A stretch of DNA of 64,000 nucleotides from a bacterium (GTDB lineage: Bacteria > Zhuqueibacterota > Zhuqueibacteria > Residuimicrobiales > Krinioviventaceae): positions 1-64,000 of the forward strand of contig CAXXFV010000003.1 of the NCBI GenBank assembly GCA_963674595.2, given 5' to 3'. Position 1 is the stretch's first letter; every line of letters starts with the position of its first letter. Positions 52,768-60,615 of the stretch are shown piece by piece. The translations under genes and the position numbers were made by a program. The notes below the pieces were generated by a model. That model was not told where the DNA came from, did no database searches, and saw only the letters and a program-made list of their open reading frames with translations.

Positions 52768-53694
52768 TTATGTTATATCTAAATTATTTTCCTTGATGAA
52801 TTCTTTAGCTTCAGTACAAAGTTGATCCGCAGAAACATACATAATTTTTTGGTCCTTATTGCGAAATCCATTATAAAGAACATCTGGAATTGGCAATGTA
52901 TCTTTGCGGATCATATAAATTTTTGTTTGGATATCTCTACTAATACCTTCGAGATTTATAGTGTCTATTTTCTGTTCAAGGGCATCATCCCAAGTTTTGC
53001 GTAAATGAACTTTTAAAAATTCTTGATCATTTGCAGCATTGCGTTGAGAAAAAAACTGAATTATTCCCCAAATATATGCTGGAACAACCGGCACTAACCA
53101 GGAAAACACAAAAGACGGAACATCTGTTTTTAATAATGAAGCAATAATGAAAATGCCTATACCTAATATTATAAGCCCCCAAAGTAGAATACTAGCGAAG
53201 CGACGACGAAGACTGCTATCCCAAAAGAGATTTGCTCTTTGACATATAAGCCGGGAATAAGCTAATGACAAACAATCTGTATTTTCAAAGTACCAATTCA
53301 ATAACTTTTCTTTGTTTTGAGGTTTTCTCAAATGCTTGTTTGCTTTCGCGATATAATCTTCACTTTCAGGTTTGGCCTGGCAAACAACATCATTCCACTT
53401 GAGCTGTAACACACGTGTATCAAACAGTTCTTGAATTTTAGCAGCTCTATTTCTAAAACTGTTTTCTTTTTTTAATATAATTACCTCAAAAAGCGTTATA
53501 ATTACACCCCATATTGACGCAAATGTTTCCAATGGACTAATAACTTTTCCTAATATAAATACAAGTATAGTAAGAGGCACAACAAGAACAAACAAATACC
53601 ACTGAATCATTTTACCCTCAGAGTATAATTGCCGTTGAGCAGCTAACAAAATAATATTTTTCTCTTCGTTTTGTGCTTCAAAAATTGTTTTCAT
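52768..53694 (-). CDS. S-4TM (SMODS-associated 4TM) family putative pore-forming effector
   Basis: QN...LAAQRQLYS, 2 TM, AAKIQELFDT-x-VL-x-L-x-WN, NWY, LICQRANLFWDSSLRR, 2 TM, SRDIQ-x2-IY-x2-R...IPD-x-LY. Confidence 0.85.
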   Translation of the reverse strand: MKTIFEAQNEEKNIILLAAQRQLYSEGKMIQWYLFVLVVPLTILVFILGKVISPLETFASIWGVIITLFEVIILKKENSFRNRAAKIQELFDTRVLQLKWNDVVCQAKPESEDYIAKANKHLRKPQNKEKLLNWYFENTDCLSLAYSRLICQRANLFWDSSLRRRFASILLWGLIILGIGIFIIASLLKTDVPSFVFSWLVPVVPAYIWGIIQFFSQRNAANDQEFLKVHLRKTWDDALEQKIDTINLEGISRDIQTKIYMIRKDTLPIPDVLYNGFRNKDQKIMYVSADQLCTEAKEFIKENNLDIT

Positions 53695-53716
53695 ATGTCA
53701 CTCCTGCGTAAATAAT

Positions 53717-57313: not shown

Positions 57314-59143
57314 TTATTTCTCCTGTTCTGCATTAAATCTTTTTGTCCAGTGCCAATTAAGATTTATAGAAATTTCCCCATAACCATTTTCGGCTACAAA
57401 GGGGCATACTTTCCAGCTATCACCATCTGAGATACCAAGATTTTCTACTTCAGAAGCAATGTCTATTGGCAGAGGAAGTCCATCAATTTTTAGCCGTGAT
57501 AGCTGAGTATTTGCCAGATCATTATCATATGCTTTTAGTACAAAGACACTACCGGCTTCCGTTAACACCCAAGGATAATATCTATTATTATGCAATTGTT
57601 TATACTGATGTCCAAAATATCCACCTACCATCTTTTGTCGTGCAAAAAAATTGACAAGATACATATTTCCATTAGTCGCTTCACTCCAATATTTGTTATA
57701 TAGTTCGCGGAGATTTTCGAGATTCGATTGTTTAAACGCATGAAACAGCAATGCATCACTTTGAAGTACAACGACTGCATGATCATCAATTATTGTCTCG
57801 GAACGTTCTTTAATAGCAGAGGTTGCCAATCCTTGATTTATTTTAAAATCAAAACGTGAATCCCTCTTGCCAAGATATTTCCAAGCCTGCTGTATTGCGT
57901 CAAATAGTTCAGAGGCAGTCTCTCTAGTATTATTTTTGGGAAAAATAATATTTGAAATCCATATGATCCTTTTTTTGTTTGCTTTAGTTCCAGAGTAATT
58001 ACAATAAGGCGAGATATATTGGAAGGTGTATAATTGATTTTCAGATGCTGTCCTTGATTTTATATCGATGCTAGTTCTTGTTTTATTAATAGTAATACAA
58101 TCTTCCCAACCAAATTCTTTTTCAATATACTCAGATCCCTTCCAATCGATTCTAAAGGTAGGTGCCTTTTTTGTCGTGTGATCCAGGGCAAATTTATTGA
58201 CATGAGCAACATCTTTGTATTCTTTGTTATCGCTGTAAACAGTTGACATTGGAATAAACACCGGCCGTTTTGTCTCATCACCAGAAGGAAAAGCATTAGT
58301 AAAACGAATTTTGGAAAAATTTGTTGCTAGATTGGGAAATTGGCTATAAACATTCTTGTTTTCATTATTTATATCTTCATTCAATTCCGCACCACAGAGG
58401 TCATTTATAGCACGGGCAACAGAACCTTTTAATACCGATCCTGAGATTATTTTTACTGATTCTCGATAATTAGATGAATTTACCTTTCCCCCAACAAACA
58501 AATCATCTATCATTCGAATTGTTAAATGATATTCTCGTGTTGTGTTTGTTATTGCTATTTCTGTTTTTTGTTTGTTTGGATTCAATTGTACATCAATTTT
58601 TGTTAATCGTCCAAAACCACATCCTTTCATGCTTCCAAAACCGCCTATCCACTTTAATCCTACCTTCAAAGATTCAGCAATAGATGATGCTTCTTTATCA
58701 TTTTCTGCCCAAAACTGAATGCAACCTTTCCAGGCAGAAGTAGATCCAGAAACAAACAAATTTTCATTTATTTGGAGAAATTTATCTCTAGCTGTTCCAG
58801 TCTTTCTATCTATAGAATTTCTTGTTGACGGCTTTAACTTTTGGATGTTAGTTTCCATTAAATCAAAATCACTAAAAAATAATTTGCCCTTTCCTGTGTC
58901 AAAAGCTTCTTGCATTTTTTTTCCAAACCATCCATCTATTGTGAAGTTATTTAAATTCACTAATTTTTCTAAATCATGAAACGAATCTCGTAATTTTCCT
59001 TTTACATGAGAACCTTTTAATGCTATTAAACCATCAGATTTACGATAAAAGATACTATCAAGACCCATAGTATTGGTCGTACCCTTACTTAAAATTGGAC
59101 CTTTTAGATATAAAATTATATTAAACGAAAAAAACTTTCTCAT
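57314..59143 (-). CDS. Cas7-Cas5 (Csx10-like) fusion RAMP
   Basis: N-terminal GSHVKGKLR...IDRKTGTA...GSMKGCGFG; C-terminal ISGSVLKG, RTSID, AGSVFV, ENGYGEI. Confidence 0.85.
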   Translation of the reverse strand: MRKFFSFNIILYLKGPILSKGTTNTMGLDSIFYRKSDGLIALKGSHVKGKLRDSFHDLEKLVNLNNFTIDGWFGKKMQEAFDTGKGKLFFSDFDLMETNIQKLKPSTRNSIDRKTGTARDKFLQINENLFVSGSTSAWKGCIQFWAENDKEASSIAESLKVGLKWIGGFGSMKGCGFGRLTKIDVQLNPNKQKTEIAITNTTREYHLTIRMIDDLFVGGKVNSSNYRESVKIISGSVLKGSVARAINDLCGAELNEDINNENKNVYSQFPNLATNFSKIRFTNAFPSGDETKRPVFIPMSTVYSDNKEYKDVAHVNKFALDHTTKKAPTFRIDWKGSEYIEKEFGWEDCITINKTRTSIDIKSRTASENQLYTFQYISPYCNYSGTKANKKRIIWISNIIFPKNNTRETASELFDAIQQAWKYLGKRDSRFDFKINQGLATSAIKERSETIIDDHAVVVLQSDALLFHAFKQSNLENLRELYNKYWSEATNGNMYLVNFFARQKMVGGYFGHQYKQLHNNRYYPWVLTEAGSVFVLKAYDNDLANTQLSRLKIDGLPLPIDIASEVENLGISDGDSWKVCPFVAENGYGEISINLNWHWTKRFNAEQEK

Positions 59144-60615
59144 AATATCCCTCCAGAATAATCCAAAAGATTATAGGCCAGTAACCAACGATTGTAATTA
59201 TCAATAATTAATTGATCTATAGCATTTTTTAAAATTTCTTTAGTTTTTGCATTCATTCTCTTATATATGCTGTTGAGAATATCATCTATTTTTTCTGGTT
59301 GGCCATTTTTAATTGTATGGAGAATTGCGTACAATTTATTTCTCGGTAAATATTTGTCAATTACTTGCAAATTTGACATTAGCCCGCCAAAATTACCTGC
59401 TTCAATTACCATTGTTTCGGGTGGTATTGGTTTATAATAGTTATTCAAAAATTCTAATATATCACCGCTAATCATATCTATTGAAGTCATATTCAAGATT
59501 GCAATTTTATTAGAATGTTCATCAATTTGTTCAACATCTTGCGGTATATCAAATTTCGCAAGTTCGCATAATCTGTGCACATATTCCCGGACTTGGAGTA
59601 TTGGAAGGTTGTGGGGGCAAAATATTACTCCAGCTGTATGCGTTACGTGCAAATCATTGAAAAAGATTTTATTACTCATGCTGTTAAAAATACTTTGAAG
59701 TACATTAAATCCTTGCCAGGCTGGCACAATTAATTCCAACTCATCGCCTCCCCAAAGTAGTATCTCAGCTCTTATTTGATTTTTAGTACTAGTTTGTAAT
59801 AAAAATGATTTATTTTCAGGTTTTTGGGCAAATCTAACAACATTTTCTATAGCTGGAACACGTAAATCTTGTTGAATTTTGCTTTGGAATTCTTGATAAT
59901 CTTTTTCCGTATTGCAGACTTTATCTCGCAACTTCCCAAATCTATTGCCATCAATATATATAAATGCCATTTTACCATCAAGCCTACCAGCAGCAGCATC
60001 TTTAGTTAATGATTCCAAATCATTTGTGAAAGGATAATCAATATTTATTAAACTGGGATTAAGTAAATTAGGAGTATTTGATAATCGCAATATCAAATTT
60101 TTACGAAGTATTCTCCCGTTGTCTTGCCTTACCTTCACGGCCTGTGAACGTCTAATATCTTCGTTCCCCTTTTTAATAGGATCTACAAAGGGTCTTACTC
60201 CGTCGAATTCACAAAAGTTGTCTCTGTTTTTTTCCTCGGGTAGTTTGAAAGAAGGAGATTGATATTGTTGCCAACGGCATTCTGCCATTAACTCTTGTAG
60301 CTGTTCCTGAAAGAGTTTATCAGGCGATATTTTTTGCATAGAATGTACAATAGTAGCAAAAGGGATTTTGGATTCTACTTGAGCTAAAATATCATCACAA
60401 ACCTGCTTGGCTTCTTTTTCATTTGGCACCTCCATACGCAATAATGCAACACTTGCTGTTGATCCCAAATCTTTAATTTTAGCTTTTTTATGTGTGATTT
60501 CATAGAATGCATCATGCTGCATAAAACTACCACCACGTATAGTCGATATATCATATGTGTCATAAATGGTAAAATCAAGATTAACAGCTTCAATTCTTAA
60601 ATGATAACTCGCCAT
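59140..60615 (-). CDS. cas10: small HD-less Cas10 with GGDE motif
   Basis: IRGGS N-terminus, C-x2-DGVRP, YIDGNRFG, LLWGGDEL, TAGVIF; 491 aa. Confidence 0.88.
   Translation of the reverse strand: MASYHLRIEAVNLDFTIYDTYDISTIRGGSFMQHDAFYEITHKKAKIKDLGSTASVALLRMEVPNEKEAKQVCDDILAQVESKIPFATIVHSMQKISPDKLFQEQLQELMAECRWQQYQSPSFKLPEEKNRDNFCEFDGVRPFVDPIKKGNEDIRRSQAVKVRQDNGRILRKNLILRLSNTPNLLNPSLINIDYPFTNDLESLTKDAAAGRLDGKMAFIYIDGNRFGKLRDKVCNTEKDYQEFQSKIQQDLRVPAIENVVRFAQKPENKSFLLQTSTKNQIRAEILLWGGDELELIVPAWQGFNVLQSIFNSMSNKIFFNDLHVTHTAGVIFCPHNLPILQVREYVHRLCELAKFDIPQDVEQIDEHSNKIAILNMTSIDMISGDILEFLNNYYKPIPPETMVIEAGNFGGLMSNLQVIDKYLPRNKLYAILHTIKNGQPEKIDDILNSIYKRMNAKTKEILKNAIDQLIIDNYNRWLLAYNLLDYSGGIL

Follow-up and report, generated by a model that had tools for sequence, protein, structure and literature searches.

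Type III CRISPR systems switch on many ancillary effectors. Membrane proteins of the S_4TM family, which are said to have been described originally by Burroughs et al. in 2015, are listed in Pfam as 'SMODS-associating 4TM effector domain' (PF18159). Here we analyse a gene of this family that lies within a type III CRISPR-Cas operon, in a stretch of bacterial DNA of 64,000 nucleotides (contig CAXXFV010000003.1 of assembly GCA_963674595.2, positions 1-64,000), which is called the window in the following; loci of relatives carry labels such as L001 or L045. The S_4TM gene is a conserved member of such type III operons. Its pairing with cas10 is real and recurrent and apparently undescribed.

Among the described systems, the one closest to this operon is the type III-D2 complex of Mitsuda et al. 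2026 (PMC13294483), represented by structure 9WXH (Cas10, Cas7-5 and Cas7x3) from a metagenome-assembled genome (MAG) of Gammaproteobacteria bacterium HyVt-522. According to the accessible text of that paper, the complex makes SAM-AMP and SAM-AMP2, conjugates of S-adenosyl methionine (SAM), needs cognate target RNA for this synthesis and acts through CorA, and CorA as well as a TA (toxin-antitoxin) module is required for defence. Residues E8 and Q186 of its Cas10 contact the amino-acid portion of SAM, and activity is lost when both are mutated (E8A/Q186A); the corresponding positions are occupied by D253 and K379 in the Cas10 of the type III-A system of L. lactis, which makes cyclic oligoadenylate (cOA). 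The D307A mutation abolishes synthesis, and D307 is credited with ATP specificity. For the type III-B system of B. fragilis, the accessible part of Chi et al. 2023 (PMC10600005) describes SAM-AMP made by Cas10 that is thought to open CorA and lead to growth arrest. In the accessible text of these two papers, SAM-AMP signalling is tied to one effector family, CorA, and no other SAM-AMP effector is mentioned in the accessible parts of Chi et al. 2023 or of the SAM-AMP lyase paper.

An S_4TM gene within a type III-D-like operon

Pfam and NCBIfam scans resolved ten close-packed open reading frames (ORFs) on the minus strand of the window (61622-50342), in the order cas6, cas10, four RAMP genes, S_4TM, reverse transcriptase (RT), cas1 and cas2 (Table 1). 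The locus is a type III CRISPR-Cas system, with cas10, RAMP (Cas7/Cas5) genes, cas6 and a CRISPR array all present. A preliminary description of this DNA had reported a protein of 308 aa with four transmembrane (TM) helices between the last cas7 and the RT, encoded on the same strand with gaps of 22 and 2 bp. ORF coordinates, Pfam and hydropathy confirm this. The ORF has an ATG start with AGGAG 7 nt before it. The distance from the last RAMP gene (547 aa) is 22 nt, and the RT follows after 2 nt if counted to its first possible TTG start or 17 nt if counted to its first ATG. The match to PF18159, which had been named as a check, spans the full length of the profile (254 bits, cut-off 26.9; residues 3-292 aligned to positions 2-291 of the 291 in the profile).

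The preliminary description had also stated that no gene for a CD-NTase (cGAS/DncV-like nucleotidyltransferase), CARF, SAVED or ring-nuclease protein is visible in the locus. Consistent with this, Pfam and NCBIfam recognised no CD-NTase/SMODS, CARF, SAVED or ring-nuclease family in the ten operon genes; a CARF/ring-nuclease-like gene does occur at a second type III locus outside the window. All ten genes are accounted for in these scans, and no nuclease or protease effector gene is among them either. When the flanking ORFs were scanned as well, neither CorA nor a TA domain was detected; S_4TM is the sole non-Cas gene.

The Cas proteins point to type III-D2. The sole solved relative of the window Cas10 that was found by sequence is the III-D2 Cas10 (9wxh_B), with E 5.6e-27 for the protein alone and 2.3e-101 with a four-sequence profile; the Pfam palm2 match is below cut-off (20.8 bits). 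Since the alignment to 9wxh_B begins at window residue 3, the protein has no HD domain. The Cas7-Cas5 fusion aligns over its full length with 9wxh_C, the Cas7-5 of III-D2 (residues 7-596 against 6-608, E 1.7e-71). The 297-aa RAMP protein corresponds to the first Cas7 domain of 9wxh_D (Cas7x3, residues 17-240, E 6.7e-15), and the 547-aa RAMP protein matches the last one (residues 1019-1087, E 1.6e-4) as well as the last Cas7 domain of Cas7-11 proteins (E about 1e-9); the 347-aa RAMP protein had no sequence match in the PDB. Because Cas10, the Cas7-Cas5 fusion and the first and last Cas7 match 9WXH, with Cas7x3 represented by three genes, we regard the window operon as an unfused relative of type III-D2.

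Recurrent linkage of S_4TM to cas10

Linkage to cas10 without a CD-NTase, which the preliminary description had suggested looking for among close homologs, recurs in genome, metagenome and Cas10-first searches. The genome scan, which covered one genome per prokaryotic species, yielded 110 S_4TM relatives, and the best 80 of them were inspected with their flanks; the metagenome scan gave 84 relatives, of which 80 were examined. The two sets overlap (L050 and L100, for example, are the same contig) and are therefore not independent. A SMODS gene lies within 2.5 kb in 71 of the 80 genome loci (67 by clustering with three representatives confirmed by Pfam, four by Pfam directly), and BLASTP detected a SMODS-like ORF in 68 of the 80 metagenome loci. 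With a SMODS neighbour in about 87% of the loci examined, the earlier statement that S_4TM proteins stand beside SMODS cyclases in CBASS (antiphage signalling systems based on cyclic oligonucleotides) is borne out. Linkage to cas10 was observed in six of the 80 genome loci without SMODS and in one with SMODS, and linkage to CRISPR genes in 3/80 metagenome loci. Three genome loci were uninformative (L033 at a contig edge, L036 with no informative neighbour, L078 beside a transposase), and nine metagenome loci were too short to judge.

A Chloroflexota MAG (L079) has exactly the gene order of the window, with homologs of Cas10 and of the RAMP fusion. In two Acidobacteriota MAGs (L001, L045), S_4TM lies directly upstream of cas10 and ends at its start. 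Four further loci (L023, L025, L049, L052), two of them cyanobacterial, carry S_4TM directly upstream of a Cmr2-type cas10 with Cmr2_N, palm2 and an intact GGDD; in L023 and L049 cmr3 and a RAMP gene follow, L025 and L052 end soon after cas10, and the S_4TM frame of L025 is split into two ORFs. Among the metagenome loci, L116 has the complete order of the window, L110 the order RAMP-RAMP-S_4TM-RT-cas1, and L113 S_4TM followed by the RT.

A profile search that started from Cas10 gave strong matches in four other genomes among 167 of the window's phylum. In two of these loci (L176, L178) the sequence extends past the last RAMP gene, and in each of them S_4TM occupies the slot that it has in the window. 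L175 ends before that slot, and L177 is a 4.7-kb contig without RAMP genes. L175 carries an ORF for a SLATT_4-like protein with two TM helices (2TM) between cas6 and cas10 (9394-9909, E 2.2e-10, below cut-off). Among 401 sampled genomes of the phylum of L079, only the genome of L079 itself has this Cas10 family, and 401 sampled genomes of the phylum of L001 added two (L184, L185). Directly upstream of cas10 these two encode homologous proteins of 543 and 644 aa (31% identity, E 1e-52) instead of S_4TM, with a large soluble N-terminal region ahead of two TM helices at the C-terminus. In the ESM Atlas, the proteins that resemble them carry the name CorA-like (feature score 0.97), with structural TM-scores of 0.56-0.76 to PF01544 clusters. 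One Cas10 family thus has an effector slot that is filled by an S_4TM, a CorA-like or a SLATT-like protein.

Including the window, nine III-D-like loci (window, L001, L045, L079, L110, L113, L116, L176, L178) and four Cmr2-type loci were found, and their sources include Chloroflexota, Acidobacteriota, Cyanobacteriota and the window's own phylum. The linkage to cas10 is recurrent and conserved across distant lineages, and S_4TM in the window operon is not a one-off insertion.

Signal sources in the genome

The preliminary description had proposed that Cas10 replaces the CD-NTase as the source of the signal. The window genome (6.6 Mb, 97.56% complete) carries a single S_4TM gene and gave no match at E <= 0.001 in a search confined to the SMODS profile, with no other CD-NTase profiles included. 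In four of the five other genomes with a Cas10-linked S_4TM no SMODS match was found either, and the fifth has one on another contig; the completeness is 75% for one of the five and is not stated for three. Neither in the operon nor, by the SMODS profile, in the genome is a CD-NTase/SMODS encoded with the effector, and for lack of a cyclase the locus is not a CBASS. Together with the linkage and the Palm motifs, which are intact in 11 of 11 members of the Cas10 family, the absence of SMODS supports the proposed replacement, as far as can be judged from sequence.

The genome has a second, unrelated type III locus on the same contig at about 85.0-95.4 kb (L164 9072-19420), beyond the window end. 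It encodes a Cas10 of 544 aa with NGDD (BLASTP against the window Cas10, E 0.012), four RAMP proteins, one of which has a cold-shock domain, a weak STIV_B116-like ORF and a Cas_APE2256/ring-nuclease-like CARF protein. No repeat array was found within 20 kb of it. The use of this second Cas10 to assess whether E and Q at the SAM-contacting positions discriminate between signals was abandoned, since it is only 18% identical and the alignment is unreliable in the relevant regions.

The Cas10 active site and its likely product

Residues of the III-D2 Cas10 were mapped onto the window Cas10 by profile alignment (PDB chain numbering of 9WXH is that of PMC13294483 plus 20), and conservation was counted in 11 members of the window's Cas10 family. 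E8 corresponds to window E9 (E in 10 members, D in one) and Q186 to Q117 (11/11). N11 and L12 are found as N12 and L13 (N12 in 11/11), S29 as S30, and A122 and S123 as A54 and S55. The motif D286-G287-x-K289-F290-G291 aligns with D222-G223-N-R225-F226-G227, in which D-G is invariant (11/11), and GGDE at 345-348 aligns with window 289-292 (GGDE 10/11, GGDD 1/11). K420 corresponds to K354 (10/11). By this alignment, the window Cas10 appears to carry the SAM-contacting residues in place of the D and K of cOA makers. By analogy with III-D2, its signal is most likely SAM-AMP, perhaps also SAM-AMP2, made from SAM and ATP. As Cas10 enzymes of this kind make SAM-AMP/SAM-AMP2 and not cyclic oligoadenylate, the exchange of a CD-NTase for Cas10 may mean a different signal chemistry too.

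The Cas10 proteins of the Cmr2-type loci were also compared with solved relatives. The best match is 9arw_A (E 3.5e-11), and the SAM-AMP-making Cmr2 of B. fragilis (9lq5_B) is reached with E 0.11. An assignment of their signal type was dropped, as the distances are too large to map D70 and E151.

The S_4TM protein

Hydropathy places two hydrophobic hairpins at about residues 27-76 and 164-214. A structure prediction, the other check that had been named, gave a confident all-helical AlphaFold2 model (56 relatives; pLDDT 95.2, pTM 0.91) with helices at 11-38, 40-51, 55-95, 144-187 and 192-239. The protein is thus predicted to have four TM helices in two hairpins and helical cytoplasmic segments. 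A two-copy complex prediction scored 0.01, was run without controls and counts neither way. A name for the protein from structural similarity was rejected, since the top Foldseek rows are TM domains of ABC transporters with a TM-score of 0.2. A word-index protein search returned 59 relatives, of which two are close (P0003 with 56% and P0004 with 49% identity) and the others reach 36% at most.

All near-invariant polar residues lie outside the hairpins. They are found in the N-terminal helix (Q8, AAQR at 18-21, Y24, K28), after TM2 (AAKIQELFD at 84-92, including Q88, F91 and D92), in the inter-hairpin segment (W134, Y135, Q152, N155, D159, R163) and in the C-terminal helix (R253, Q256, R263). 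The III-D-core sequences that have a residue at the respective column all keep Q8, A18-A19-Q20-R21, Y24, Q88, D92, W134, Y135, Q152, D159, R163, Q256 and R263, and F91 is kept in eight of nine. The polar residues listed are retained in the III-D-linked proteins; we infer that these residues form a cytoplasmic sensing and gating part.

In the Cmr2-linked S_4TM proteins of L023, L049 and L052, GA(F/Y)S stands in place of AAQR, and R253 has become V or I. These changes may reflect an altered ligand or altered gating.

Proposed mechanism and the nature of the signal

We propose that S_4TM is a membrane effector of this type III-D system that depends on a Cas10 signal, and assign this reading a probability of roughly 0.75. 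The complex with its CRISPR RNA (crRNA) would bind a complementary foreign transcript, and Cas10 would be activated and make a small signal, which by homology is likely to be SAM-AMP (perhaps SAM-AMP2). The signal would bind to the cytoplasmic helical domain of S_4TM, that is, its N-terminal helix and C-terminal helices together with the segment between the hairpins, and S_4TM would open or assemble into a pore. The membrane would then depolarise and the infected cell stop growing, as proposed for CorA in III-D2 and III-B. The full chain, in which a SAM-AMP-type signal gates S_4TM, is put forward more tentatively, at a little under even odds.

Several observations weigh against this proposal in whole or in part. 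Pfam and NCBIfam recognised no CARF, SAVED or other nucleotide-binding domain in S_4TM, and comparison with the PDB gave no match at E <= 0.001 with Foldseek and none with a sequence profile; with neither a known sensor domain nor a solved relative, the ligand site is only assumed. The polar core is identical in SMODS-linked and III-D-linked S_4TM proteins. If this unchanged core is the ligand site, the ligand should resemble the SMODS product, and a switch to SAM-AMP would not be expected. The sole departure from III-D2 among the mapped Cas10 residues is Q244 at the position of D307 (D in 7/11, Q in 3/11 and S in 1/11 family members). The scans of the window operon found no SAM-AMP-degrading gene (NrN, SAM-AMP lyase or VapC-like). 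At L001, SMODS and SLATT_4 genes (8433-9899; SLATT_4 by NCBIfam, E 2e-25) lie just upstream of S_4TM-cas10, which renders this locus ambiguous; it is also counted among the 71 SMODS-linked loci. The in-frame stop in cas1 and the insertion sequence (IS) element in the array indicate that parts of the window locus may be decaying. Finally, the pairwise similarities of S_4TM and those of Cas10 at seven loci do not agree with each other (Spearman -0.04 over 21 non-independent pairs), so the two have not simply co-diverged.

Some of these points bear on the signal rather than on the role of S_4TM. S_4TM might be activated by Cas10 through a cyclic or linear oligoadenylate, presumably the type of ligand it has in CBASS, and not through SAM-AMP. 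The shared polar core, the main argument against a switch of ligand, keeps this alternative alive, and Q244 and the lack of a SAM-AMP-degrading gene in the operon would fit it as well. Moreover, Cmr2-type operons begin with S_4TM too, and their Cas10, with its canonical GGDD, matches the SAM-AMP-making Cmr2 of B. fragilis only at the E value given above. On the other hand, the equivalents of E8 and Q186 are conserved in the family of the window Cas10 at the very positions where the cOA maker has D and K, and the closest solved relative makes SAM-AMP/SAM-AMP2, with no cOA product mentioned in the accessible text (PMC13294483). Sister loci carry CorA-like proteins, the only SAM-AMP effector known from the accessible literature. 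A CARF/ring-nuclease-like gene belongs to the other type III system of the genome, and a distinct signal might avoid cross-talk with that system. An oligoadenylate signal therefore appears rather unlikely to us, though it deserves to be taken seriously.

If the signal is of the SAM-AMP type, S_4TM could be a second SAM-AMP/SAM-AMP2 effector family, unrelated to CorA, and SLATT-type 2TM proteins of sister loci maybe a third; we offer this with clear doubt. If true, a SAM-nucleotide conjugate would be read directly by a compact four-TM protein without a classical sensor domain, CBASS cyclases and Cas10 enzymes that make SAM-AMP would freely exchange effectors, and the question would arise what the S_4TM-linked SMODS enzymes really make. 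The conserved slot offers an experimental handle on the ligand sensed by S_4TM, on the gating of a sensor-less 4TM protein, on the number of SAM-AMP receptors and on the exchange of effectors between CBASS and CRISPR. For annotation pipelines, S_4TM would serve as a marker of an effector that is now left out of type III loci.

History of the pairing and remaining alternatives

Two trees were calculated, both without the split gene of L025 and without matches of fewer than 240 aligned residues. A first, quick IQ-TREE analysis comprised 149 S_4TM proteins. For the second tree of 65 rows, 20 long-branch, identical or fragmentary rows were dropped, as were two thirds of the remaining SMODS-linked rows; the dropped rows include L149, L063, L147, L146, L126, L080, L141, L066, L085, L024, L145, L144, L073, L076, L033, L078, L158, L150 and L114. 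The 149-row tree groups the window protein with its two close relatives, L079 with L116, and L110 with L113 (support 100 each). The Cmr2-linked proteins form a clade (support 100) nested in SMODS-linked cyanobacterial proteins, L001 and L045 fall among SMODS-linked proteins, and the long SMODS-linked rows L063 and L147 stand beside the window's clade. The 65-row tree requires two changes for the nine III-D-core proteins, four for all III-D-linked and five for all CRISPR-linked proteins. A single clade of the nine core proteins is not rejected by the approximately unbiased (AU) test (difference in log-likelihood 1.33, p 0.447). Trees and AU test fit one old recruitment into the III-D core and at least two more, into the acidobacterial III-D loci and the Cmr2-type loci. 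S_4TM seems to have been exchanged between loci with the slot retained.

These results bear on the possibility that S_4TM is a passenger, a CBASS remnant or a mobile gene that is uncoupled from Cas10. Most S_4TM loci are SMODS-linked in both scans, defence genes group in islands, and L001 has SMODS and SLATT genes beside S_4TM. IS elements flank and invade the window locus, and the S_4TM frame of L025 is broken. A passenger would, however, hardly keep its slot and strand (gaps of at most 22 nt in the window) among loci that share only about 30% identity in S_4TM, and it would not be expected beside two unrelated Cas10 families. SMODS is absent from 5/6 genomes tested, the window's S_4TM gene is intact with all core residues kept, and the nine III-D-core proteins need only the two changes noted above, with a single clade not rejected. 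We consider an uncoupled passenger improbable.

Two further explanations are very improbable. The first is an inverse, guard-type scheme as in Panoptes, in which a Cas10 nucleotide would keep S_4TM shut and loss of the signal through phage sponges or nucleases would open it; a precedent exists in the Cas10-like mCpol, which according to the accessible text of PMC12657230 constitutively makes 2'3'-c-di-AMP that represses a CBASS-like 2TM effector, but mCpol lacks the Cas10 regulatory loop, the window Cas10 belongs to a complete crRNA effector complex, accompanied by cas6 and an array of 61 repeats, and its closest solved relative needs cognate target RNA for synthesis (PMC13294483, accessible text). 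The second dispenses with a diffusible signal and takes S_4TM as a membrane tether for the effector complex or the RT-Cas1 module, or as gated by protein contact, which would suit its position at the junction of interference genes and RT-cas1 in the window, L110 and L113 and its lack of a known nucleotide-binding domain, but S_4TM has no adjacent RT in L176, L178, L116 and L079 and lies upstream of cas10 in L001, L045 and the Cmr2-type loci, the strictly conserved catalytic residues of Cas10 indicate that its product is needed, and in CBASS S_4TM works with only a SMODS partner.

Gene content and surroundings of the locus

The positions of the operon genes, the array and neighbouring features are listed in Table 1. 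Homologs of cas6 stand next to the same Cas10 family in L001, L045, L175 and L176, and the order around the 347-aa RAMP gene is kept in L079, L110, L116, L175, L176 and L178. The 83-aa ORF past the TGA in cas1 corresponds to profile positions 246-283 of Cas_Cas1, the C-terminus of Cas1; the TGA may have arisen by nonsense mutation or by an error in sequencing, or it may be read through. The RT proteins of L110 (3311-4399) and L113 (875-1882) are 59% identical to that of the window, and the adjacent S_4TM and RAMP proteins 31-39%. Either the adaptation module has diverged much less than the interference genes, or an exchange of the module has taken place.

Next to cas2, the repeats of the array are perfect; those at the opposite end are degenerate. 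An IS3-family element splits the array, and the repeats beyond it have two to three fixed changes (GTAATG/CCAC variants). On the other side of the operon, an IS21-family pair adjoins cas6, with an ORF for a Mu-transposase-like protein of 529 aa and an IstB-like ATPase that leaves the window edge; a tandem repeat separates the pair from cas6.

An Mgm101p-like gene, in copies that are 96% identical, and a helix-turn-helix (HTH) gene are found at both type III loci of the genome (L164 4988-5929 and 7588-7995 for the second locus), which suggests a duplicated or mobile module flanking both. TA-like genes were noticed within S_4TM CRISPR loci, HepT-like in L079 (11210-13899) and with an Xre/MbcA/ParS-type antitoxin domain in L001 (6512-7207). 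They recall the TA module that type III-D2 requires.

Table 1. Features of the type III operon and its surroundings in the window
Feature	Position	Strand	Evidence and remarks
cas6, 322 aa	60654-61622	-	Pfam CRISPR_Cas6 E 6.9e-19
Short Cas10, 491 aa	59140-60615	-	No HD domain; GGDE 289-292, DGNRFG 222-227
Cas7-Cas5 fusion, 609 aa	57314-59143	-	Two RAMP stretches
Cas7, Csx7-like, 297 aa	56418-57311	-	RAMPs E 8.1e-20; TIGR02581 Csx7 E 4e-19 (below cut-off)
Cas7-like RAMP, 347 aa	55363-56406	-	RAMPs E 2.2e-10
Cas7 with insertion, 547 aa, TIGR03986-like	53717-55360	-	TIGR03986 E 9.1e-36 (below cut-off)
S_4TM membrane protein, 308 aa, proposed ancillary effector	52768-53694	-	PF18159 E 2.5e-75
Reverse transcriptase, 321 aa, adaptation module	51800-52765	-	RVT_1 E 3.9e-36; group II intron RT-like E 6.4e-79 (below cut-off)
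cas1	50769-51800	-	In-frame TGA 51033-51035, giving 255 aa and 83 aa; Cas_Cas1 E 2.4e-69, profile 1-239 of 283
cas2, 93 aa	50342-50623	-	CRISPR_Cas2 E 3.3e-23
CRISPR array, 61 copies of a 37-nt repeat	44067-50132	- (inferred from cas genes)	Repeat search, <=3 mismatches, 0 expected; Tandem Repeats Finder
IS3-family element	44719-45878		Transposase ORFs 44719-45015, 45057-45878
IS21-family pair	61743-63998		
23-nt tandem repeat, 3.9 copies	61743-61831		
Mgm101p-like gene	39425-40360		
HTH gene	42020-42427		

Comparison with known systems

Literature searches, the coverage of which missed the founding description of S_4TM, returned no publication linking S_4TM to cas10, and no biochemical or structural description of S_4TM was found in the literature searched. 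This agrees with the preliminary description, in which the combination appeared as a CRISPR-CBASS hybrid not known to be characterised. The terms '4TM' and 'SMODS' are absent from the accessible text of the survey of type III effectors by Hoikkala et al. 2024 (PMC11229360). The accessible part of Shah et al. 2019 lists an uncharacterised 'trans-membrane' cluster, C3a59 (seven members, e.g. Nos7107_2826, in subtypes A, B and D), which could be the same family as S_4TM.

As described in the accessible text of PMC11229360, Cam1 and Csx23 are likewise membrane-acting ancillary effectors of type III loci, and NucC and TIR-SAVED are effectors common to CBASS and CRISPR. A defined sensor that is soluble (CARF, SAVED or the tetramer domain of Csx23) is present in all four, and they respond to cA3 or cA4, whereas no such sensor is recognised in S_4TM. 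Panoptes (mCpol with 2TM-beta; PMC12657230, PMC12657218), as far as the accessible text goes, shares with the window the combination of a Cas10-type Palm enzyme and a CBASS-type TM effector. It differs in that mCpol is stand-alone and constitutive, without a crRNA complex, its signal inhibits, and the effector is Cap15-like (2TM and a beta-barrel; PMC12657230).

Type I CBASS of the SMODS and S_4TM kind have the same effector family with the same conserved core, and SMODS is the usual partner in the genome loci. In the window, by contrast, the locus holds no SMODS/CD-NTase, the genome gives no SMODS match, and the partner is an RNA-guided Cas10 complex. Activation would therefore be sequence-specific and adaptive, unlike in CBASS. 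CBASS is not the only point of reference: by analogy, the closest known counterpart of S_4TM is the CorA effector of III-D2 and III-B. The III-B system of B. fragilis (Cmr, CorA and NrN; accessible text of PMC10600005) also has a membrane protein without CARF or SAVED as its proposed effector, but its Cas10 is a Cmr2, its CorA has a large soluble sensor domain and NrN is adjacent, none of which is found in the window operon.

With III-D2 (9WXH, PMC13294483), the window operon shares the short HD-less Cas10 with GGDE, the equivalents of E8 and Q186, the Cas7-Cas5 fusion, the collinear Cas7 modules and the presence of a single candidate for the ancillary effector, a membrane protein. In place of the three fused Cas7 domains of Cas7x3, it has three Cas7 genes, encoded by separate ORFs of 297, 347 and 547 aa. 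It has S_4TM instead of CorA and Q at the position of D307; a VapBC-like TA module was not found in the operon, and the flanking ORFs scanned contain neither CorA nor a TA module. Strict membership in type III-D2 fails for want of Cas7x3, CorA and the TA module, and the window has an RT-cas1-cas2 module besides. Within its operon, S_4TM would hold the place that CorA has in sister loci and, in terms of CBASS, the place of the partner of the SMODS cyclase.

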